Below are positions 1 to 31,093 of a DNA stretch of 53,678 nucleotides, one piece after another. Both the position numbers and the translations under genes were made by a program. The first letter of the stretch is position 1. Every line of letters begins with the position of its first letter. Where the stretch lies: the NCBI GenBank assembly GCA_016193335.1, contig JACPSK010000006.1:1-53678 (forward strand), given 5' to 3'. The notes beneath the pieces were generated by a model. That model saw only the letters and a program-made list of their open reading frames with translations, was not told where the DNA came from and made no database searches. This DNA comes from Candidatus Magasanikiibacteriota bacterium (GTDB taxonomy: Bacteria; Patescibacteriota; Patescibacteriia; Magasanikbacterales; UBA922).

Positions 1-106
1 TATAGGTCTCCCAATTTGAAAAAACCGCTCTACCGAGCTTAATTTCCAAAACACAAGTGTACTTTGATGAAAATGATCGGCAAATGTCGCTCAATTTAGC
101 GGAAAG

Positions 107-305
107 TTAACGCAACACGAGTGCGCTTCCGAGTATGCGAAGCCGCGCCGTTATTATTAGGACAAACTTTCACTTTCAGATAATCGTATTTTAGCAGATT
201 TAGCCCTTGATTTCAATAAGCGCGGTTTGGGTGAGGAAAATAGCGATACCTTTGAAAATATAAAATTTATCGCTATTTTCTGAACCGCATACTCGGTGTT
301 ATCGG
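107..305. repeat. attC-like hairpin 1 (one arm degenerate)
   Basis: CCGAGTATGCG (~130-140) pairs with CGCATACTCGG (~287-297), followed by the core GTTATCG at 298-304; internal stem GAAAATAGCGATA/TATCGCTATTTTC. Confidence 0.5.
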
Positions 306-436
306 ATGTAAATTATTTTGCCCCAAATTTTTATCGCAACAATTTTCTACGATCTTACACACAGTTGATTTTTTTAGCCACATAGTGTAAGGTTTTCGAC
401 AGGTACAACAACCCTATACAAACAAGGAGGACTGAG

Positions 437-1219
437 ATGGACGCAAACAATCCTATTGGATCTGACGGCCGCACCTACCACCTCGAAACGCGCGAGGGTG
501 ACCTCGCCAGGCACTGTTTGCTCGTCGGTTCGCCCGAACGAGCGGAGATGATCGCGAACACACTGTTCACTGATGGTAAGCTCGTAGGAGACCACCGTGG
601 CCTCAAGTCGTTCACCGGCACGGTGGAGGGCGTGCCGATGTCGGTGGTTACGACCGGAATGGGCAGTGCGTCTACAGCTATCGTTTTGCCTGAAACGGTC
701 TACTCGGGTGCCGAGCGCCTCATCCGTGTCGGCTCGTGCTCGACGCTCTGGCCGGAACCGAGGCCGGGCGAGTCGGCCATCTGCACCGGTGCAGTCCGTC
801 TAGACGGCGCCAGCGAGAACTGGGCGCCGATCGAGTACCCGGCCGTGGCGGACTTCCGCGTCGTGAGCGCCATGGTCGAGGCGGCGAAAGAACTTGGCCT
901 TCCGCATCACGTCGGCATCGGTGCCACGACCACCTGCTTCAACGAAGGGCAGGCAAGGCCGGACATCTCGGGCTACCTTCCGCCTCGGCTCAAGGCCATG
1001 CATGAGGAATTCGTCCAGCGGGGCGTCCTCTTTTACTCGATGGAGGAGGCGACGCTGTTCGTGTGGTGCTCCACGCACGGCAAGAACCTGTGGGCCGGCG
1101 CGGTGGATGCCATCTATGGCAACCGCCACACTAACGAGCTCGAGGTTCGCGGCGAGGAGGAGGCCGCGCGCATTGCCATTCGGGCGTTGCTCATCCTCAA
1201 CGGGCGTTACCCGCTGTAG
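437..1219 (+). CDS. udp: Uridine/nucleoside phosphorylase (PNP_UDP_1 family)
   Basis: YHL, GSPERA, TTGMGSAS, IRVGSC, SMEEATL motifs; SD AAGGAGG upstream; much more GC-rich than its flanks. Confidence 0.85.
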   Translation: MDANNPIGSDGRTYHLETREGDLARHCLLVGSPERAEMIANTLFTDGKLVGDHRGLKSFTGTVEGVPMSVVTTGMGSASTAIVLPETVYSGAERLIRVGSCSTLWPEPRPGESAICTGAVRLDGASENWAPIEYPAVADFRVVSAMVEAAKELGLPHHVGIGATTTCFNEGQARPDISGYLPPRLKAMHEEFVQRGVLFYSMEEATLFVWCSTHGKNLWAGAVDAIYGNRHTNELEVRGEEEAARIAIRALLILNGRYPL

Positions 1220-1274
1220 TTCGTGGACGGGCGTAGCAGTTTATTCAATCAACACAACCGAGGAGGTTACACAC

Positions 1275-1308
1275 GAGCTGTCTTGCAGAAGGGCAGCTCT
1301 TTCATTTT
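1275..1308 (+). terminator. Probable intrinsic terminator of udp
   Basis: GAGCTGTCTT-GCAG-AAGGGCAGCTC hairpin followed by a T-rich tract. Confidence 0.5.
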
Positions 1309-1364
1309 AAAAAATTGTTGCGATAAAAAATTTCAATAAAAATTGGGGGCAAAATAATTTATTT

Positions 1365-1492
1365 CCGATAACGTCCGCGTGTATGCGATGTTTGCTGGCT
1401 GTATAATATCGCGAAGCGGTACAGCCAGCAAATATGGGCGGAGGCTTGCGGAGGTACTGAGCAAGCCGTAGCCGCATACACGCTGTTAGCTG
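1365..1492. repeat. attC-like recombination site 2
   Basis: CCGATAAC-gtcc-GCGTGTATGCG ... CGCATACACGC-t-GTTAGCT; AAC/GTT cores, asymmetric spacer, internal stems (TTTGCTGGCTGTA/TACAGCCAGCAAA and GGCTTGC/GCAAGCC). Confidence 0.7.
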
Positions 1493-1570
1493 ATGTATTC
1501 CTTTTCTTTTGTTTTCTGATAAGAAAACTTGTTTTATAAAAATTTTCAAATTTCTTTTTCCGTTTTGGGC

Positions 1571-1686
1571 GAAGGGCAGAGGGGAATTAAAGGGGTGAAT
1601 GCCCGAAGCCCAAAACACCTATTTCTAGTTTGAGGGAGGGGCAAGAGGGGAACAAAAGGGGTGAATTGCCCCAACCTCAAACACCT
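1571..1686. repeat. Two tandem imperfect ~50 bp repeats
   Basis: GGGCA(A)GAGGGGAAnnAAAGGGGTGAAT(T)GCCC...AAACACCT occurs at ~1574 and ~1639. Confidence 0.6.
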
Positions 1687-1744
1687 TATTGATATAATTC
1701 CGTATAAAATTCACTAAAAACTGTTTCTAGCGTATTGGTTTCGT

Positions 1745-3166
1745 TTAGTTTTTCCAAATATTTTCAAAAAAAGTATCAACATCAGTGTATCCCAAATTTG
1801 ATGATAATGTTTTTATGAATTTTGATGCATCAATTTTGTCGAGTATTTCACTTTCGAGTTCAATATTGTTTTCTATCAGCTTTTTGTAAACAACAAAATA
1901 AGGGTTGCTGTTAACCTGTTTAATGGCTTCTTTGATAAGCTCTTTTACGGTTTTAGTTTTGTCCGTTCTGAGATCTATTTGGCTTAAAGTATCCTCACTC
2001 AAAAAATAATTTTCAATGCAGTATTTGTTGAGCTGTATTAGGTTGCTATATTTTGTTGATAGGTCTGTGCTTGGAATCGGATTATTATCGTTGTCGATCA
2101 GGAAATATGTATTTTGGACGTTTAGATTTTTGAATACTTCTGAGTATTTTTTAACTTCGCCACAGCCACCGTTCAAAATTGATACTTCTAAACTTTTTCC
2201 TGTAAGCGATTTAATTTTTTCAAGGATTTTTTTATGCGATTTATCTTCAACGTAAGCAATCTTGCTTTCAGTAGTAATGCCACCAATGATTTTTACTAGA
2301 TCTCCTGCCAGCGCTTGCTGTATGCCGTCGTTTGGCTTTTGTTTTGCGATTATCTTTCCATCTTCCCACACTAAAAATTGAGTTTTCTTTAGGAAGGGGT
2401 CTATGAAGCATGCACGAGAGTGAGTCACGATAATTATCTGTTTTTTGTGTTCATCACAAAACCAGTCCAGAAATTGAAAAAGCTTTTCCTCAAGTTGCCA
2501 GTTTAAATGCACTTCTGGCTCATCTATCAAATAGACTTTTGTGGAATCTTTTGCGTAAAAAATTGCAAACATCAATGATATTAAGGCATTTTCGCCCGAG
2601 CTAAGTTGAGATGGAGTTAAGTCGAAACCAGCTTTTTTGAATGAAAATTGATATTTGGTATTTTCTATATCCCAAGTAAAAGTGATTTGATAATCAAATA
2701 CCTTTTGCAGGATCGTCGTATAGCTTGTTGCTGATTGAGTTGTTGCGTCAATTTTCGGAGTGTTTTTGTTGACTAAGTCTTCTGCATGTAAAACAAGATA
2801 TTCCGAAATAGACTTTATCGTTTGAAAATTATCATCCTGTATATTTTGGTTTAAAAAGGTGCCTAAAGTACTTGTTCTTGCATTTTCATCTTTTCGGATA
2901 ATTTTTTGTGCTTGCTCGATCAACACTTTTTGAGCATTTCTTTTTGGACTAAAAGCGGCTATGTCTTTTGGTTTAGCATTGTCAAAAAATTCAACATTAT
3001 TTCCGCCTCTTTGTGAGAGAATGTGATTTAATAATTGCGTTTTGCCAGTGCCGTTACCACCAGCTATCACATTGAATCCCGGCTTAAACTCGATTTTCTG
3101 TTTAAAAATTGAGCTGAAAAGATCAACCTGAACGCTTTTGATGTAATTTTGTTGCTCGTCGCTCAT
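1745..3166 (-). CDS. ABC/AAA ATPase fused to a TOPRIM-like domain (OLD-family / PARIS AriAB-like defence protein)
   Basis: Walker A GGNGTGKT, signature LSSGE, Walker B LIDEPEVHL, H-loop VTHS; C-terminal YVED...LIDND...CIENY TOPRIM-like motifs. Confidence 0.75.
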   Translation of the reverse strand: MSDEQQNYIKSVQVDLFSSIFKQKIEFKPGFNVIAGGNGTGKTQLLNHILSQRGGNNVEFFDNAKPKDIAAFSPKRNAQKVLIEQAQKIIRKDENARTSTLGTFLNQNIQDDNFQTIKSISEYLVLHAEDLVNKNTPKIDATTQSATSYTTILQKVFDYQITFTWDIENTKYQFSFKKAGFDLTPSQLSSGENALISLMFAIFYAKDSTKVYLIDEPEVHLNWQLEEKLFQFLDWFCDEHKKQIIIVTHSRACFIDPFLKKTQFLVWEDGKIIAKQKPNDGIQQALAGDLVKIIGGITTESKIAYVEDKSHKKILEKIKSLTGKSLEVSILNGGCGEVKKYSEVFKNLNVQNTYFLIDNDNNPIPSTDLSTKYSNLIQLNKYCIENYFLSEDTLSQIDLRTDKTKTVKELIKEAIKQVNSNPYFVVYKKLIENNIELESEILDKIDASKFIKTLSSNLGYTDVDTFFENIWKN

Positions 3167-3177
3167 ATGTGGTCTCG

Positions 3178-5451
3178 TTATAGATTCTTTAACTCATTTA
3201 AAACCTCCTCCACATTCCCATTGTGAACCAAGAAGAAATGGAGCTTACCCTTGCCGAGTTTTACCCATTCGTCAGCGATAAGGATTTTGTATCCAGTATC
3301 TTCGTTACTGATTCGGTCTTCGCCTTTCCATTCAAGAGCAACGATATTGCCTTTTTTGGTGAGGGCGATAAAATCGGGATAAAACTTATTTTTCTGCCAG
3401 CCTAGAATATAGAAGGGGTCTTGCTTTTCACGATTGCGAACCCAAAACTCAACATTCGGTAGGCTATCAAGGTCTAGGCGTTCAACAAAACTTAATTCCT
3501 CCTTGTTTAGCTTGTCGATTTTTTCGTAGTAATTTTTGTTGAACTCTTGGGGTATTTGCTCTTTGAGCGTGATTGTTTCAGGGAAGTTCTCAAACGCCTT
3601 GGTCGCAATCTTCTTTTTCGCCACAAACTCAATGAAACGCTTTTTGGCGTAGGCTTCAAGCACGCTGTTTATGGCTTCGTTCAAGCGATCAAGGAACAAG
3701 TAGCGATTGACGGAAAGCTCGGCCAAAGATTTCTGCTTTAGTTGGTAATCAACGGCTTTATCAATGAATTTTACTTTGTTGGGCTTATCAAGCAGGGTAA
3801 AGCGGAGCTTTTTATCAAGCCATTGCACCAATTCCTGTTTTGAAAAGTTTTTGTCGCGGTAAGTAAGATTAAGAATTTGCTGTTTGCCCTTGTGCCATTT
3901 GTTGTCGTCCTCAATATCAATAATGGCGCGACCGTCATTGTCATAATGAATTTCAAAATCAAATTCGGCGTTTTGTTTGGCAAGTTCAAAATCTTCGCCG
4001 ATCAGTTCCTCGAAAGTCAGTTTTTCGTCCTCTAAACTCATCATCGGCACGGCAAAATCTTTTTTCACGGCTCGGTTTACTTCTTTGGGGTCTTTTGCGG
4101 TATCGCCGTTTGATGAAGCACCAATCAAATCAAGTTTGCTGTAGCCGTTTCTTTCAAGTCCTGAAATGATGTTGCTGACCGCTTCATTGAAGTTTTTGGC
4201 GGAAGCGAAAATGTAGGAGCGGTTTAATGCCTCGTTTTTCTTTCGTTTCGCATAGGGCATACGGATAATACGCCCGATGATCTGCTCTACGGCGATTTTT
4301 GCACCGACATTTGCAACGGAAATGAGGACATAAGCAAAAGAACAGTCCCAACCCTCGGCAAGTGCGCTAACGGTTATGATGTAGCGAATTTTGCATTTCT
4401 TGCTGAATAAATCCACACCCTCTAAATCGTTTCGGTCTGATGTTTTGATTGCGATTTCGTCCTCGGAAATTTTGGCGGAAAGCAAATACTCTTTGATCTG
4501 TTCAACTGTCACGTTATTTTGTGTTTGGCTCTTTGGCTGCGCTTGGATAAGTGCAATAGGGCGTATGTATTCGCCTGTATTCTTTTTGCCTTCTTTTTCA
4601 AGTTCGGCTCGTTTCTCAAGTCCGCGAGCAACGGCGTTTTTCCATTGGGCGGAGCTTTCAAGCACAAGCGGAATTTTCACCATTTGCTCGTCTTTGAGTT
4701 CGGCTGGGGAAATGTCCACCAAAATATTACTGCCGGAGCGTGGCGTAGCGGTGTATTCAATTACAAAACTTGGATTCAGACTATTGAGAAAATCCATTGA
4801 AAGCTCGGTTTTGGTTTTGTGTCCTTCATCAATCACCACAAGCGGATTGCTCATGCGGACGACATTTGCGAGCGAGTTTATGATTGTACCTTCCTCGTCC
4901 TTCTCAAGATCGTCTCGGTCATCAAGATTTTCAAAATGGCTCAAGAGCGAGCCGTTTTCCTGATAAACTTTGTATTTCTTTTGCAGTGTTTTTTCTTTGC
5001 GGAAAGCCTCCAAGCTGGAAATGATAATGCAAAGATTGTCCTGCACATCTTCTTTTCTGATTCGCAATGCTTCCTCGTTTGAAAAAATACGCACGCCGTT
5101 TTGAAAAGCCTCGTCTAAAACCTGTCTATGCCAGTCATTGCGGTCTTTAAACTTCTTGAGTGTTTGGGTTTTTATGGCTTCAGACGGTACAAACCACATC
5201 ACAATACCTCTATCCATTTTGTGCTTGAGGAAAGAGCGCATGATTTCGTTGACGGCATGACAGCCGACAAGCGTTTTTCCTCCGCCGGTCGGGATTTTGA
5301 CGCAAACAAAAGGAACATCACCGAAAAAGTCGCCGTGATACGGTCGGTCGGTTTCGCCCATGAAGGCATATTTTGGCCCGACGGCCTCTATACCTTTGAG
5401 ATAGGCTTTGAGTTTGTCTAACGCTGATTGTTGATATTTTTTGAGTTCCAT
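3178..5451 (-). CDS. res: Type III restriction enzyme Res subunit
   Basis: PTGGGKT, DEGH, YTATP, EGWD, QIIGRIIR helicase motifs; C-terminal YPDF...EWKG PD-(D/E)xK nuclease. Confidence 0.9.
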   Translation of the reverse strand: MELKKYQQSALDKLKAYLKGIEAVGPKYAFMGETDRPYHGDFFGDVPFVCVKIPTGGGKTLVGCHAVNEIMRSFLKHKMDRGIVMWFVPSEAIKTQTLKKFKDRNDWHRQVLDEAFQNGVRIFSNEEALRIRKEDVQDNLCIIISSLEAFRKEKTLQKKYKVYQENGSLLSHFENLDDRDDLEKDEEGTIINSLANVVRMSNPLVVIDEGHKTKTELSMDFLNSLNPSFVIEYTATPRSGSNILVDISPAELKDEQMVKIPLVLESSAQWKNAVARGLEKRAELEKEGKKNTGEYIRPIALIQAQPKSQTQNNVTVEQIKEYLLSAKISEDEIAIKTSDRNDLEGVDLFSKKCKIRYIITVSALAEGWDCSFAYVLISVANVGAKIAVEQIIGRIIRMPYAKRKKNEALNRSYIFASAKNFNEAVSNIISGLERNGYSKLDLIGASSNGDTAKDPKEVNRAVKKDFAVPMMSLEDEKLTFEELIGEDFELAKQNAEFDFEIHYDNDGRAIIDIEDDNKWHKGKQQILNLTYRDKNFSKQELVQWLDKKLRFTLLDKPNKVKFIDKAVDYQLKQKSLAELSVNRYLFLDRLNEAINSVLEAYAKKRFIEFVAKKKIATKAFENFPETITLKEQIPQEFNKNYYEKIDKLNKEELSFVERLDLDSLPNVEFWVRNREKQDPFYILGWQKNKFYPDFIALTKKGNIVALEWKGEDRISNEDTGYKILIADEWVKLGKGKLHFFLVHNGNVEEVLNELKNL

Positions 5452-5453
5452 AA

Positions 5454-6998
5454 TTAGTAGATTTTAACTTCGTAGGGAATTTGCTTGAAGACAACATTGT
5501 ATTTTTCAAGCGTGGTTTCATCGAGTAAGCACTTGTCGGCGTAGACAACTTTTTTGCTATCGTTCTTTTTTAGTTTTTTCAAGAAAGATTTGCTCAACAC
5601 ATTTTCGCCTTTTTCTTTATAGATCAGATAATACTCGATTTCCGCGTACTCGCCGATATAATTTGCCGATACTTTGGCATGGTCAATGTTGGTTTGCGTT
5701 TCGGTAAAATAAATGTAGGTTGCGAATTGATCAAAGTCGCAGGTGTCCTCGATTTGACCTTCTTCATCAAATAGCGGTTTGCTGAGTTCGCAATATTCAA
5801 AGCCGTCTTTATATCCATATTTTTCACTTGCCCGTTTTACTCTTTCTGCAGTGATGTTTTTTGCGACCTCGTCTTCCATTTCAACAAGAATAAATTTGCG
5901 GTTTCCGCCATCCTCTTTGTTCAAGTCTAAAACGGCGTGGCCTGTTGTGCCCGAACCAGCGAAAGAATCCAGTATTAAATCGTTACTATTAGAGGAAAGT
6001 TGAATAATTCTTTTTAAAAGTCGAACAGGCTTAGGTGTTGCAAAGCCATTTTCAGGAAAAATATTTTTATAATCCTTTTTTGCCTCATCGTTACTTCCTA
6101 CTTCGTCATACAACCAAATAGTTTTTGGTATCACTCCTTGTTTCATTTCGTTTAGGTATTTTTTGAGACGTGGTACGGCATCGCCTTTTTTACCAAACCA
6201 AATTGTCCCTTCTTTGTCGGCTCCTTTTAATGTTTGTACGCTGTATCGAGGAAAAGTTCCGGCCGGTGGCCGCCATTTTACGCCATTTTCAAAAGTAAAT
6301 TCATATCCCGTGTCTGTGCCACTTTTTGCATGAAGTGGTTGGGTCATCCAAGGCCCCCGAGGATCGTTATCTGGATTTTTATAACGAGCGTCTTGCTCTT
6401 CTGTTCGCGCAATTAAATTGATATTAAAATTAGTATTCTTTTTATCTTTTGCGTAACAGACAATAAAATCATGGGTGGCTGAAAAATATTTTGCGTCATT
6501 ACTTTGGGTATATTTTTTTTGCCATATGATATTTGCAACAAAATTTTCTTCTCTAAAAATCTCATCCAATACCTGTTTCAAGTTGCAATGCTCGTTATCA
6601 TCAATGGATACAAATATAGAGCCGTCATCTGATAATAAATCTCTAAGTAACTTGAGGCGCGGATACATCATACAAAGCCATTTGTCATGCCGGCAAAGAT
6701 CCTCTGAATCTCGACCAACCACTTTTCCTAGCCATTTCTTGATTTTAGGAGAATTAACTTTGTCATTATAAATCCATCCTTCATTTCCCGTGTTATATGG
6801 TGGATCAATATAGATACATTTTACTTTGCCAGTATAAAAAGGCATGAGTGCTTTTAATGCTTCAAGATTGTCGCCGTGAATGATCAGATTTTGAGAATTG
6901 CCTACTGAAGCCGACTTAATTTTTTTGAGTAGCCGAAAGGGAACCTCTTTATCGTGGTTTACTACTGCTTCTTTTCCAATCCAGTTTAATGTAGGCAT
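5454..6998 (-). CDS. mod: Type III R-M Mod subunit (N6-adenine methyltransferase)
   Basis: MPTLNWIGK start, GDNLEAL, IYIDPPYNTG, TPKP, LDSFAGSGTT. Confidence 0.92.
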   Translation of the reverse strand: MPTLNWIGKEAVVNHDKEVPFRLLKKIKSASVGNSQNLIIHGDNLEALKALMPFYTGKVKCIYIDPPYNTGNEGWIYNDKVNSPKIKKWLGKVVGRDSEDLCRHDKWLCMMYPRLKLLRDLLSDDGSIFVSIDDNEHCNLKQVLDEIFREENFVANIIWQKKYTQSNDAKYFSATHDFIVCYAKDKKNTNFNINLIARTEEQDARYKNPDNDPRGPWMTQPLHAKSGTDTGYEFTFENGVKWRPPAGTFPRYSVQTLKGADKEGTIWFGKKGDAVPRLKKYLNEMKQGVIPKTIWLYDEVGSNDEAKKDYKNIFPENGFATPKPVRLLKRIIQLSSNSNDLILDSFAGSGTTGHAVLDLNKEDGGNRKFILVEMEDEVAKNITAERVKRASEKYGYKDGFEYCELSKPLFDEEGQIEDTCDFDQFATYIYFTETQTNIDHAKVSANYIGEYAEIEYYLIYKEKGENVLSKSFLKKLKKNDSKKVVYADKCLLDETTLEKYNVVFKQIPYEVKIY

Positions 6999-7253
6999 AG
7001 GCTTATTTTGGTTTGACTTCCGCTGTATTATAGCGCGTTAGCACTAGTTATAAAATAAGGTTTTCGGAGCGACCAGCGGGAGCGGAGAAAACATCCGAAC
7101 TGGCTGGCGATAGCCAGACAGCCCCCCTCATCAAAAAAGCGTTTCCGTAGCGGAGCGGAGGAAACACCATATTTCCCCTTATAAATAAAGAAAAAGAAAT
7201 TTGAAAATTTTTTAAAACAATTGGGCGATAGCCCAGAAAAGAAAAGGAATATT

Positions 7254-7320
7254 TCAGCTAACTAGCTATTATATGTACAGTTTACATCTAGTCAACCAAA
7301 ATGGTATTGATATATGTACT
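7254..7320 (-). other. Candidate attI-like site
   Basis: Minus strand reads ...TGTACATATAATAGCTA-GTTAGCTGA; the GTT core has no attC hairpin; direct repeats TATATGTAC at 7270-7278 and 7311-7319. Confidence 0.4.
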
Positions 7321-7350: not shown

Positions 7351-8199
7351 CTAAATCCGCTCCACCCAATGACCATCCACTTCCACTTCCAATTCGAGGA
7401 ATATTTTTCTGTTGAATGCTTGTTCCAGCTCTTTTCTGGCCATTTGTCCTATTTCCTTTATTCTTTGTCCTCCCGCCCCCACTATCATCCGTTTGTAACG
7501 CGGTTCGCTGGTCAAAACACGCGCTGATATCACCATAATGTCGGTTTTTTCTTCTACGCCGTCCACCTCCACGTTCACCGAGTAGGGGACTTCTTTTTCA
7601 AGAACTGAAAAAACTTTTTCTCTCACAATTTCAGCTATCCAAAATTCTCTGTCCACGTTTGTAAGTTGTTCTTGCGGATACAGAGCTTCTCCTTCCGGCA
7701 TTACTCCGGCAAGTTTTTCTCGCAGTGGCGCTATATGGCTGGCTTTGAGAGCGGACAAGCTGAATACGGCGTCAAAATCCCCGGCCATATTGAGGTATTG
7801 TTCTTTGTGTATTCGTTCTCGTTCGCCGAGATCGCTTTTGTTCAAGACGAGGATTTTGAACACATCAAGATGACGTATGAGCCCGTATATATATTTTTCT
7901 TCGTCTCCTATTTCACGGGTCGGGTCAACCACATAGACAATGGCATCCACGCCATCGAGGGCTTCTTTGGCTTTTTGAATGAGTTTTCCCGAGAGGCGGC
8001 TTCGTCTATCTTTAAAAATGCCGGGCGTGTCGATAAGAACCACTTGTCCTTGGTCTGTGTTTAAGACTCCGTGTATAATATGTCTGGTCATTTGGGGCCT
8101 AAAGCTGGTGGCCGCGATTTTGGTGCCAACGAGGGTGTTGAGCAAAGTGGATTTTCCCACATTGGAACGGCCTACCAGTACTGCAAATCCTGATTTCAT
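7351..8199 (-). CDS. era: GTPase Era
   Basis: GRSNVGKST, DTPG, NKSD, C-terminal KH domain (EVPYS, GAGG). Confidence 0.95.
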   Translation of the reverse strand: MKSGFAVLVGRSNVGKSTLLNTLVGTKIAATSFRPQMTRHIIHGVLNTDQGQVVLIDTPGIFKDRRSRLSGKLIQKAKEALDGVDAIVYVVDPTREIGDEEKYIYGLIRHLDVFKILVLNKSDLGERERIHKEQYLNMAGDFDAVFSLSALKASHIAPLREKLAGVMPEGEALYPQEQLTNVDREFWIAEIVREKVFSVLEKEVPYSVNVEVDGVEEKTDIMVISARVLTSEPRYKRMIVGAGGQRIKEIGQMARKELEQAFNRKIFLELEVEVDGHWVERI

Positions 8200-8312
8200 A
8201 CGCGCATGTTTGATAAAAGTTTTATAATCTTTTTTAGTTATGGTTGTTTTGCCTTTTTCCCCATACTAGCAGGCTCTTGCCTAAATTTCAACCCTTCGCT
8301 ATACTTCTGTCT

Positions 8313-8759
8313 ATGAAAGTTATCTTGCTACAAGACGTCCCGGGTACGGGAAAACAGGGAGAAATAAAAGAAGTAAGCCAGGGTTTTGCCCGAAATTTTT
8401 TGTTTAAAAAAAGTATGGCGAAGCTGGCCAGTCTTGCCGCTGTTTCGGATCTGCATGCCCATATTCGCAAGAAAGAAAAGGAAGAAGAGGCTGATTTGAA
8501 GACTCAGCAAAAAACGGCTTCAAAGCTCGACGGCGCTGAAATTGAAATTTTGGAAAAAATCAATGATGAAGGCAGACTCTACGCCTCGATAAATTCTCAA
8601 AAAATCGCCAATGCCATAGATAAGCAGCTCAATCTCAGCATCAAACCAAAACAGGTGAGTATTTCTTCTCCTATCAAAGCGGTAGGAGAGTACACGGTGC
8701 GCGTTGAATTTGAACATGGTCTGGAAGCTGAACTCCACGTCAATGTGAACCCGGCCTAG
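8313..8759 (+). CDS. rplI: 50S ribosomal protein L9
   Basis: [30 protein letters not shown]; start moved to the ATG at 8313. Confidence 0.95.
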
Positions 8760-8760
8760 T

Positions 8761-8784
8761 CCCTCCATCATCGGAGGGTTTTTT
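8761..8784 (+). terminator. Intrinsic terminator of rplI
   Basis: CCCTCC-ATCATC-GGAGGG-TTTTTT. Confidence 0.8.
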
Positions 8785-9042
8785 GTGTATGGATGATTTT
8801 GAAGTGGGAAATTCAAGGTTTGTATTTTGCGGTTTTGGCACTTTTTTTTGAAATCCGCGTATGGTATACTCATCTCGTTTACTTGTTCGGATTTGAATGT
8901 CCCGCGTTTCTGAAGGTATAAAAGTTTGGGATGAGCTGAGAACAGCTGATGAGTCGGTCTTATTCTGAATAATTTGAACATTGAGGAAACAAATTTTGTT
9001 TTTTTAAAAATATAACACAATAACGCGTAAATTTTTCACATT

Positions 9043-10683
9043 ATGGCCAAACTCAAAAGAACGAAATTTATTTTTGTGGCGGGCGGTGTCTTGTCCGGAG
9101 TGGGCAAGGGAGTAACATCCGCGTCACTCGGAGCCATATTCAAGTCAAAAGGATTTTCGGTTACTGCTCTCAAAATAGACCCTTATATCAATATAGACGC
9201 CGGCACCATGAACCCCACTGAACACGGCGAGGTTTTTGTTCTTGATGACGGAGATGAAACAGACCAAGACATGGGGAATTACGAACGTTTTCTTGATACA
9301 GATTTGAGCTCTGCGAATTATATGACCACGGGTCGAGTGTATCTGAGTGTTATTCAGGCAGAACGGGCCATGAAGTACAAGGGCAAAAATGTGGAGGTGG
9401 TTCCCGACATTCCGCGAGAAGTCATACGACGGATCGAGGAGGCCGCCAAACGCGCCGAAGCTGAAATCGTGATCACTGAAATAGGGGGGACCGTGGGGGA
9501 GTATCAGAATATTTTGTTTCTTGAAGCGGTTCGTGAAATGAAACTCAGAGCCCCCAAAGATATTGCCGTGGTATTGGTGAGCTATTTGCCTATTCCTTCT
9601 CATCTCGGCGAGATGAAGACCAAGCCTACCCAGCACGCCCAGCGCCAGCTCAATAGCGCGGGATTGCACGCGGATATGATTATAGCTCGGGGCTCCACTA
9701 CTTTGGATGAAGTTCGCAAACAAAAGCTTGCCATGCTCTGCGGCGTTCCCAAGGAATATTCCATTTCCGCTCCGGATGTTGAATCTATCTATGAGATTCC
9801 TCTCAAATTGGAAGAGCAGAATACAGGAAATAAATTATTAAAAGTATTGGAACTCAAGCCCAAAGCGAGTAATCTGGCCAAGTGGAAACATTTTGTCCAT
9901 TCTATAGCCCATCCGTTTAAAGAGGTTCGGATAGCCGTGGTTGGCAAGTATTTTGGAACCGGAAAATTCACCTTGGCCGATTCCTATATATCGGTCATCG
10001 AGTCTGTAAAACACGCGTCCTGGCATTATGGAGCCAAACCTGTTTTAGATTGGATTGATTCTGAAGAATTCGAAAAAAATCCCAAAAAACTTAAAGAATT
10101 GAAAGCCTATGACGGTATCATTGTGCCCGGGGGTTTTGGGCATCGCGGAGTGGAGGGGATAATACTCGCCATCAATTTCGCGCGTACAGAGAATATTCCT
10201 TATTTCGGTCTTTGCTACGGAATGCAGCTCGCTTGCGTGGAGTTTGCTCGGAATGTCCTGGGCAAAAAAGGAGCCAATACCGTGGAGATGGACCCCAAGA
10301 CTCCTTATCCCATTATTATCGTAAATCCTTACCAAGAACGAAATATACAGCAAAACAGGTACGGCGGCACTATGCGCCTCGGCGCTTATCATTGTGCTAT
10401 AAAAAAGGGAAGCAAAGCGCATAAAGCATACAAAAAAGATCATATTTCAGAGCGCCACAGGCATCGTTATGAGTTCAATAACGAATACAGAGATGAAATG
10501 GCCAAAGCGGGCATGGAGGTAGCGGGGGTTAACCCGGAATCTGATCTTGTTGAAATTGTTGAGCTCCGCGATCATCCTTTTTTTCTGGGAACCCAATTTC
10601 ACCCTGAATTCAAAACAAAGCCCATGCGGCCGCATCCTTTATTTCAAGCTTTCGTTGGGGCGGCCTTGAAAAGCAAGACTTGA
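9043..10683 (+). CDS. pyrG: CTP synthase
   Basis: GGVLSGVGKG, KIDPYIN, GLCYGMQ, ERHRHRYE, QFHPE. Confidence 0.98.
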   Translation: MAKLKRTKFIFVAGGVLSGVGKGVTSASLGAIFKSKGFSVTALKIDPYINIDAGTMNPTEHGEVFVLDDGDETDQDMGNYERFLDTDLSSANYMTTGRVYLSVIQAERAMKYKGKNVEVVPDIPREVIRRIEEAAKRAEAEIVITEIGGTVGEYQNILFLEAVREMKLRAPKDIAVVLVSYLPIPSHLGEMKTKPTQHAQRQLNSAGLHADMIIARGSTTLDEVRKQKLAMLCGVPKEYSISAPDVESIYEIPLKLEEQNTGNKLLKVLELKPKASNLAKWKHFVHSIAHPFKEVRIAVVGKYFGTGKFTLADSYISVIESVKHASWHYGAKPVLDWIDSEEFEKNPKKLKELKAYDGIIVPGGFGHRGVEGIILAINFARTENIPYFGLCYGMQLACVEFARNVLGKKGANTVEMDPKTPYPIIIVNPYQERNIQQNRYGGTMRLGAYHCAIKKGSKAHKAYKKDHISERHRHRYEFNNEYRDEMAKAGMEVAGVNPESDLVEIVELRDHPFFLGTQFHPEFKTKPMRPHPLFQAFVGAALKSKT

Positions 10684-30858: not shown

Positions 30859-30910
30859 ATGTCGTTCTCACAATAGATTTTATGGTTCTGGGGATAACTC
30901 CAAGCCCATG

Positions 30911-31000
30911 TTTCCATAACATATTTTTATAAATTCTGCGGAGTCAGTCCGCTTCGCTCTCGCACTCGTCCTTAGGATTTATAAAAATCTGTTATGGAAA
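30911..31000. repeat. 90 bp palindromic element
   Basis: TTTCCATAACATATTTTTATAAAT ... ATTTATAAAAATCTGTTATGGAAA. Confidence 0.7.
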
Positions 31001-31093
31001 GATAGGCTATTATAATTCGATGGCTATCCGGACACAGCGGGCATTGCGTCTTCTCCTTGTTTTTTCGGCCACATTAGGCTAGCATAGGCGGAT

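Follow-up and report, generated by a model that had tools for sequence, protein, structure and literature searches.

How does a bacterium come to hold, directly beside the housekeeping gene era, gene segments whose two ends are long reverse complements of each other, and by which machinery could such segments have been acquired? This question is raised by the DNA stretch analysed here (hereafter, the window), which comprises the first 53,678 bases of contig C6 of a metagenome-assembled genome of a groundwater Candidatus Magasanikiibacteriota bacterium (1.106 Mb, 8 contigs, 44-45% GC), and whose proteins have homologues named as members of the Patescibacteria group. Positions 124-7262 of the window probably form an array of two cassettes that belongs to an integron-like system of site-specific gene capture, typical of Patescibacteria. 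An earlier note, made from the letters of this stretch, had described an integron-like cassette array; its architecture and the boundaries of the mobile unit stand, while the direction has been refined: reading starts at an attI-like site beside era and proceeds along the minus strand.

On that strand, the observed order is: attI-like region, cassette B, attC_B, cassette A, and attC_A (Table 1). Cassettes start (minus strand) with GTTAnnnGAAATA and finish with TACATCnnnTAAC, an asymmetry which is fixed in both A and B, and these core motifs are kept at every cassette boundary of this genome and of its relatives. Cassette B meets the era side with no hairpin in between, in the same way as a first cassette meets attI.

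Table 1. Location of the array components, their cargo genes, the flanking features and the candidate recombinase (window positions unless a contig is indicated)
Feature	Position	Strand	Remarks
IS4-like element, right end	1-123	+	Full copy at C1:1-1328; interrupts attC_A a few bases before the R' core
attC_A	124-297	-	Follows cassette A in the array direction; far (R') side cut by the insertion sequence
Cassette A	298-1372	-	End repeats 298-349 and 1308-1372
attC_B	1373-1484	-	112 nt between TAAC and GTTA; L stem of 11-12 bp that covaries, plus two inner hairpins
Cassette B	1485-7262	-	5,778 nt, three genes
AriA/GajA-like ATPase (cassette B)	3166-1745	-	Third gene of cassette B
Type III restriction enzyme (cassette B)	5451-3178	-	1.5e-86
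Type III methyltransferase (cassette B)	6998-5454	-	PADLOC 3.3e-190
attI-like junction region	7263-7320	-	Homologue of the attI next to the C5 recombinase gene; adjoins era
era GTPase	7351-8199	-	Housekeeping flank; outside the element
Xer/IntI-like tyrosine recombinase	C5:304-1146	+	280 aa; cassette end at C5:1-220

Hairpins and cassettes of the array

The hairpin proposed in the earlier note to join segments A and B is confirmed: the stretch 1360-1497, which separates 1372 from 1485, folds as DNA with -37.5 kcal/mol on the plus strand (z -6.2; 0 of 200 shuffles as good) and -32.7 kcal/mol on the minus strand. The stretch 100-312, in turn, folds with -32.5 kcal/mol (z -3.0), and attC_A is a close match to an intact site present in the relative G007. 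Alignment of 11 attC sites from eight genomes revealed (i) a conserved 13-nt core on each side; (ii) an inner L stem of 12 predicted pairs, with compensatory changes in 8; and (iii) two extra bases on the 3' arm of this stem. When 98 sites from 25 loci were considered (49-208 nt, measured with their 13-nt flanks), the bottom strand was predicted to fold more stably than the top strand in 92 (mean -2.7 kcal/mol).

A covariance model was built from the 11 aligned sites. It matches attC_B, which is one of its seeds, at 1360-1497 with 101.8 bits, and attC_A at 209-310 with 27.1 bits (E 0.014). In the whole 1.1-Mb genome, where the earlier note had recommended a search for further copies, the model finds only four sites (two of them non-seeds), all within arrays and on one strand. 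The model replaced a naive finder of AAC...GTT plus a stem, which proved too noisy (333 matches genome-wide at 11/12 pairs), and Rfam yielded no match at the hairpins. Among the noise of the AAC...GTT hairpin finder, a separate family of long near-perfect palindromes surfaced, with ends like ...CCTTCATAAC / GTTATGAAGG...; one member lies in the window at 30907-31004 and others near C1:104369, 337494, 485105 and 501240, C4:14661, and C5:37744.

Regarding the cassettes, the inverted repeats initially noticed at the ends of segments A and B are present at those places (arms of 25-42 nt, 88-93%). In cassette A, they pair 298-339 with 1331-1372 (42 nt, 88%) and 325-349 with 1308-1332 (25 nt, 92%); in cassette B, they pair 1485-1510 with 7237-7262 (26 nt, 92%) and 1533-1560 with 7190-7217 (28 nt, 93%). 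Moreover, the left junctions of both cassettes (285-310 and 1472-1497) are direct repeats, 85% alike.

The suggestion that the cassettes deliver metabolic and defence cargo was borne out as well. Cassette A carries a nucleoside/uridine phosphorylase (PNP_UDP_1; 437-1219, plus strand; GC content of 61-66% versus 44% for the genome) that runs against the array direction. Homologues of this phosphorylase are 80-93% identical, some of them being named as other Patescibacteria; an origin outside the candidate phyla radiation (CPR) for this high-GC gene was considered and set aside, as the nearest homologues with a source name (80-83% identical, versus 87-93% for the closest ones of all) belong to Magasanikbacteria. 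Cassette B carries a type III restriction-modification system plus the AriA/GajA-like ATPase, with all three genes oriented with the array and followed by attC_B.

The mobile unit and the ends of the cassettes

Among the relatives of the same order (60 genomes), two cassettes occur in members of different genera or families: (i) one in G001 and G029 (86.9% identity over 708 nt), with a homology that extends from position +1 of the GTT until some 100 nt beyond the end of the cassette; and (ii) another one in G029 and G047 (78% over 1,117 nt), from -3 to +125/131. In both cases, neither the attC upstream nor the next cassette is related, and the homology starts at GTT, continues through the downstream attC and ends at the next GTT, the resolution of the crossover being the shared GTTA and not a single bond. 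Judging from these alignments, the mobile unit consists of the cassette together with the attC that lies downstream of it, as in integrons, and its boundaries fall at the GTT core, where the earlier note had advised looking for them.

Contigs from X5, an independent groundwater sample that holds 0.80 of the sampled words, show other neighbours at these same points. On one contig, a B-type end at 7262 runs straight into another attC, with the break located exactly at 7262|7263; on another contig, a different cassette end lies ahead of attC_B. A number of further joints (125-1463, 312-1484, 319-1641, 142-281, 1379-1481, and others) were considered as excision products and set aside, in view of their short sides and the unknown letters between them; joints such as 125-1463 and 312-1484 are treated here as related sites located elsewhere. 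The stretches without cover in the runs X6 and X8 carry no information on the array.

The cassettes of the relatives provide a wider view. Sixty-four intervals between consecutive model matches, together with A and B, make up 66 cassette intervals with a median length of 824 nt. The longest open reading frame (ORF) runs with the array in 54 of them and against it in 8, while the other four are units of about 102 nt without any ORF. These empty cassettes (L043 1595-1696 and 4586-4687; L034 2286-2386 and L029 2344-2446, the last two in minus-strand coordinates) consist of two complementary halves only, and the two found in G001 have identical first and last 34 nt.

Complementarity between the two ends of a same cassette was scored beyond the conserved core, at positions 14-30, with a threshold of at least 12/17 matches. 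It was found in 36/66 intervals, as opposed to 0/44 pairs of ends flanking one attC and 64/4,290 random pairs. Similarly, the variable positions 5-8 all match in 30/66 own-end pairs versus 2/44 neighbour pairs. Within this complementarity there is a fixed 2-nt mismatch, AAAT at the 5' end versus ATGT at the 3' end, in approximately 41 of the 66 cassettes. Since the ends of one cassette are complementary to each other and not to those of the neighbours, the inverted ends belong to the cassette and would move with it. The long repeats that differ between cassettes, regarded at first as an oddity of this locus, are hence not peculiar to A and B but a general rule for the cassettes of this lineage. 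It is this own-end complementarity in the relatives which places the repeats beyond chance, and not a scan for GTT...AAC inverted repeats (19/24 matches) in the genome under study: the scan gave 25 pairs genome-wide versus 5-106 for other trinucleotide cores, and the pairs of the window were not special.

The inverted ends of a cassette meet only in the excised circle, not in the array. For cassette B, the predicted circle junction was folded on both strands, as had been proposed, and the modelled junction reached -93.4 kcal/mol (bottom) and -85.5 kcal/mol (top), about twofold stronger than the array context (-46.7 and -40.9 kcal/mol, respectively); the mean of the shuffles was -20.9 kcal/mol.

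Finally, the terminal regions of cassette B (7124-7262, 5' in the array direction, and 1485-1631, 3') are conserved "shells". These shells (139-147 nt) are 87-89% identical to cassette ends that carry unrelated cargo in two relatives, G028 and G011, and the 5' shell contains a small hairpin followed by a T run. In run X8, the B shell has a depth of 100-204 and the cargo one of 0-12, and positions 1620 and 7136 are joined on one contig. Two G-rich direct repeats of 43 nt (1578-1620 and 1644-1686, 79% alike) were also observed at the 3' shell.

The candidate recombinase, its spread and the insertion sequence

A domain search for PF00589 recombinases found none in the window contig, in accordance with the absence reported from the letters of the window, and two in the entire genome, on contigs C5 and C1. 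The search for an IntI/Xer-like recombinase recommended in the earlier note thus provided a candidate, namely the C5 gene, which lies 83 nt from a cassette start with the same core motif, is divergent from that cassette and has, between both, an attI region homologous to that of the window. The three attI-like copies of the genome (window, C5, and C1) are identical to one another at 40 of the first 57 aligned columns. The third copy (C1:1329-1405) is 96% identical to the C5 copy, is situated directly after an insertion sequence and is followed by no recombinase gene. The best sigma-70-like match in the first 7.4 kb falls within the attI-like region of the window (7295 to 7268; 11/12; TTGACT-16-TATAAT) and reads into cassette B; the total count of such matches in these 7.4 kb was not above that of shuffles.

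Against NCBIfam models, the C5 recombinase scores best as XerA_Arch ("site-specific tyrosine recombinase/integron integrase"; 215.7 bits, cutoff 220), followed by XerD (194.5 bits) and the integron integrase TIGR02249 (191.8 bits, cutoff 265, in two stretches). Its best solved relative is the integron integrase VchIntIA (2a3v, 2.9e-39) and then XerA (1.1e-38). Residues 13-179 align with 8-174 of VchIntIA and residues 204-279 with 242-317, in such a way that 24 residues span the place of 67 (chain 175-241); as a consequence of this gap, the IntI-specific region is absent from the C5 recombinase. The family is very large (of the 8,000 candidates scored, at least 5,064 proteins reach E <= 1e-30), with most members having around 270 aa and many of them placed on contigs of 1-5 kb. 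A recombinase search in metagenome contigs returned two irrelevant loci only (in a Bacteroidales and in a Lysobacter metagenome-assembled genome), which were not used.

The second recombinase of the genome (L005, C1:516460-519990, at 1048-2085; 345 aa) is best classified as XerD (233 bits) and is only 34% identical to the C5 recombinase in the catalytic half. For these two reasons, the C1 gene is likelier than the C5 gene to be the housekeeping Xer. At the position of the IntI-specific domain, the C1 protein has a lysine-rich insertion of about 26 residues, and the C5 recombinase has none there. Directly downstream of the C5 gene there is a 23S-5S rRNA unit (L001, 1570-5141), which is not preceded by a 16S rRNA gene on this contig.

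Concerning the spread of the system, two samples were studied: the 60 relatives, seven of which supplied seed sites for the covariance model, and 150 genomes evenly sampled across the phylum. The attC model has matches in 36/60 relatives (29/53 non-seed genomes), in co-oriented clusters with up to 25 sites per genome, and in 28/150 genomes of the phylum sample (for instance, G076 has 14 sites over a length of 25 kb). Of the 60 relatives, 26 have homologues of the recombinase (E <= 1e-49), and 21 of these 26 have attC matches as well. Adjacency is also observed: of the 12 loci in which the sequence ahead of the recombinase gene reaches at least 245 nt, 11 have a cassette start at a distance of 83-150 nt upstream of the gene (9 were found by script and 2 from inspected junctions). 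In the five distant genomes checked, the recombinase heads the array divergently in G076, G197 and G117, lies on another contig in G105, and was not found in G173. In many relatives, the recombinase gene is located 100-340 nt from a contig end and, therefore, the assemblies break just upstream of it.

The genome under study has a second array (L002, C2:86945-96944; locus 7356-9866) with a NUDIX hydrolase cassette and three small ORFs, one per cassette, without Pfam family. At its far end, a HicA-toxin gene and its DUF7387 partner stand beside riboflavin genes.

The start of the window belongs to a different type of element. Window positions 1-124 are 100% identical to C1:1206-1329, that is, to the end of an insertion sequence of 1,328 bp with perfect 18-bp inverted ends (window copy of the 18-mer at 106-123) and with the transposase domains DDE_Tnp_1 and DUF4372 (Pfam). 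In consequence, positions 107-123 are not attC-like: from the hairpin placed at 107-305 in the earlier note, the part at 124-297 holds as an attC-like site cut by the insertion sequence on one side, and the first bases do not. Positions 1-105 were likewise ruled out as a third cassette, as they correspond to the end of the insertion sequence. In X5, a contig has attC_A without the insertion sequence and preceded by another cassette end. The possibility that the cassette repeats are ends of a known transposon was looked at with this element, whose ends differ from those of the cassettes.

Three flanks of the insertion sequence were seen (123|124, C2:96807|96808, and C1:1328|1329), all within about 10 nt or less of an array crossover; the sites it abuts are attC_A, an attC remnant on C2 (insertion sequence at C2:96808-96944) and the attI-like copy on C1. 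The element may target the recombination sites of the arrays, three flanks being too few to show it. The contigs break at these points because of the copies of the insertion sequence, over which the depth in the source run is about four times that of the neighbours (45 vs 11). Contiguity of the C2 end, the insertion sequence and the C6 start, with a target duplication, was considered, and the flanks are only 6/8 alike. Insertion sequences of the IS1111-attC group are known to target integron attC sites. The element described here resembles them in abutting array recombination sites and differs from them in its transposase, which is of the DDE type (IS4-like, with 18-bp inverted ends) instead of a DEDD enzyme.

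Mechanism, competing explanations and significance

According to the mechanism proposed here, the C5 recombinase would be the likely enzyme, acting in trans on the era-side array, because its gene sits divergently beside its own attI and first cassette; the era-adjacent attI-like site could then serve as a secondary site for in-trans capture. The earlier suggestion of an integron-like array served in trans gains support, at the level of sequence, from the integron-like boundaries and from this candidate recombinase with an attI of its own. Exchange would take place at the conserved GTT of the GTTAnnnGAAATA core and, by analogy with integrons, attC would probably recombine as a folded bottom strand. 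In the circle, the cassette's own inverted ends (25-75 nt) would flank attC and lengthen its stem, with an approximately twofold predicted energy. In the most speculative step, this extension might mark and stabilize the recombination site of the free cassette.

Several observations weigh against this reading. With regard to the enzyme, (i) the C5 recombinase lacks the IntI-specific domain of about 35 residues near patch III which, for Cury et al. (2016; PMC4889954), defines IntI; (ii) its best NCBIfam match is XerA, just below the cutoff of that model; and (iii) it is encoded on a different contig of a metagenome-assembled genome than the array of the window. With regard to distribution, five of the 26 recombinase-positive relatives have no attC match, 15 of the other 34 relatives have attC sites without a full recombinase match (6 of these 15 carry partial ones), and the genomes of the relatives are not independent samples. 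Moreover, 30/66 intervals are below the complementarity threshold, partly owing to boundary error (23/90 sites are off register). The joints from X5 and X8 have short sides (20-44 nt) and possibly come from other organisms, and no recombination event, circle or excision joint was directly seen in the contig data, which cannot show rare forms.

Three other explanations were weighed. In the first one, the arrays are real, and the complementarity of the ends either acts in RNA (5'-3' pairing would insulate or process the transcript) or is the relic of genes inserted into palindromic empty units. The four ORF-less units, the recurrence of the B shells around unrelated cargo in two other genera, the cargo-less shell represented by the X8 contig 1620-7136 with its uneven depth, and the small hairpin plus T run of the 5' shell all speak for it. 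But the better-folding strand is the antisense (bottom) one, the opposite of what a sense RNA would favour, and complementarity is kept while the sequences differ between cassettes, and for this reason present selection is favoured over a relic. We regard this explanation as rather unlikely.

The second one invokes Xer-type integrative modules, in the manner of integrative mobile elements exploiting Xer (IMEX) or of pdif modules, with exchange of double-stranded dif-like cores, the hairpins and inverted ends being incidental or else terminators or regulators. Modules of the pdif type are flanked by inverted recombinase sites, which counts in its favour, as does a recombinase that scores best against the XerA and XerD models and is without the IntI insertion. 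Against it, what the junctions have in common is limited to the cassette side of the GTT, the attI and attC sides being different as in integrons, as judged by eye and with no formal search for a 28-bp two-arm core; the L stem covaries, and the strand asymmetry of the fold is present in 92/98 sites; a separate XerD-like recombinase of 345 aa is likelier to be the housekeeping Xer; and the units are in direct, not alternating, order. Such modules are an unlikely account of the array.

A reading of A and B as non-autonomous transposons, mobilized by a DDE transposase (for instance, that of the insertion sequence) and inserted by chance between palindromes, is highly improbable, in spite of the long terminal inverted repeats of both segments and of the presence of a DDE insertion sequence in these arrays, given that (i) the only DDE transposase nearby belongs to an element whose ends are unrelated to those of the cassettes; (ii) there is no target-site duplication around cassette B, whose flanks differ; (iii) the shared units start at GTT and include the downstream attC; (iv) the co-oriented arrays are tied to a tyrosine recombinase; and (v) the cassette ends differ from each other in a fixed way (AAAT vs ATGT, about 41/66).

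Returning to the integron-like reading, the resemblance to integrons is extensive: a divergent recombinase and attI beside a co-oriented array of mostly single-ORF cassettes; attC sites built as imperfect palindromes, bounded by ...AAC and GTT... and containing an inner stem that covaries and a loop that varies; a mobile unit made up of a cassette and the attC following it, GTT as the point of exchange, a bottom strand predicted to fold better, and defence cargo. As the array of the window has no recombinase, it also resembles a cluster of attC sites lacking integron-integrases (CALIN). The differences are likewise clear: (i) a recombinase without the IntI-specific domain; (ii) a core of 13 nt (GTTAnnnGAAATA / TACATCnnnTAAC) instead of 7 nt; (iii) inverted ends of 25-75 nt proper to each cassette, with a fixed 2-nt mismatch; (iv) conserved end shells of about 140 nt, reused around different cargo; (v) one cassette of 5.8 kb with three genes; and (vi) a Patescibacteria host, a phylum for which no integron report was found. 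As for the Xer/dif systems (IMEX, pdif of Acinetobacter plasmids, and archaeal XerA), the recombinase described here is about as close to XerA/XerD as to IntI, and both systems have modules bounded by inverted ends that resemble recombinase sites. Here, in contrast, there are hairpin attC sites between units, a direct order and a separate XerD-like gene, and inspection by eye, with no formal search, revealed no two-armed dif-like core common to both partners. All things considered, the system works like an integron and is not filed in the IntI family, because the domain by which the field itself delimits that family is missing.

In the literature search, no paper joining integrons or attC with Patescibacteria or CPR was found; the supplementary tables of IntegronFinder, which were outside this search, could list CPR matches. 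The portion of the IntegronFinder 2.0 text that was consulted (PMC9024848) contains no "CPR" and names no CPR taxon. Within this scope, the system appears to represent a type of integron that is widespread and so far undescribed, in which the recombinase is unusual and the cassettes have long ends that match each other. Tools that require the IntI domain would probably call these arrays CALINs or miss them, and the arrays themselves break assemblies, as illustrated by the many recombinase genes close to a contig end. An integron-like architecture without the hallmark domain puts the definition of IntI to the test and bears on the origin of IntI from Xer.

The genomes of CPR bacteria are very small, and these bacteria are assumed to rely on the exchange of genes. 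Gene capture in approximately a fifth of the phylum sample could explain part of their turnover of accessory genes, including defence systems. How cassettes are made is an open question in integron biology, for which a handle is offered by the inverted ends proper to each cassette, together with their fixed mismatch and the shells that recur around unrelated cargo. It is possible, and is put forward here only tentatively, that Patescibacteria have a phylum-wide integron class of their own, driven by a short Xer-like integrase in which the IntI domain was never present or from which it was lost, and with cassettes built on reusable palindromic shells. If so, the halves of empty units of about 100-260 nt would flank any gene placed inside them, the free cassette would be recognized through the structure of its long self-complementary ends, and the genesis of cassettes would have been caught in the act.

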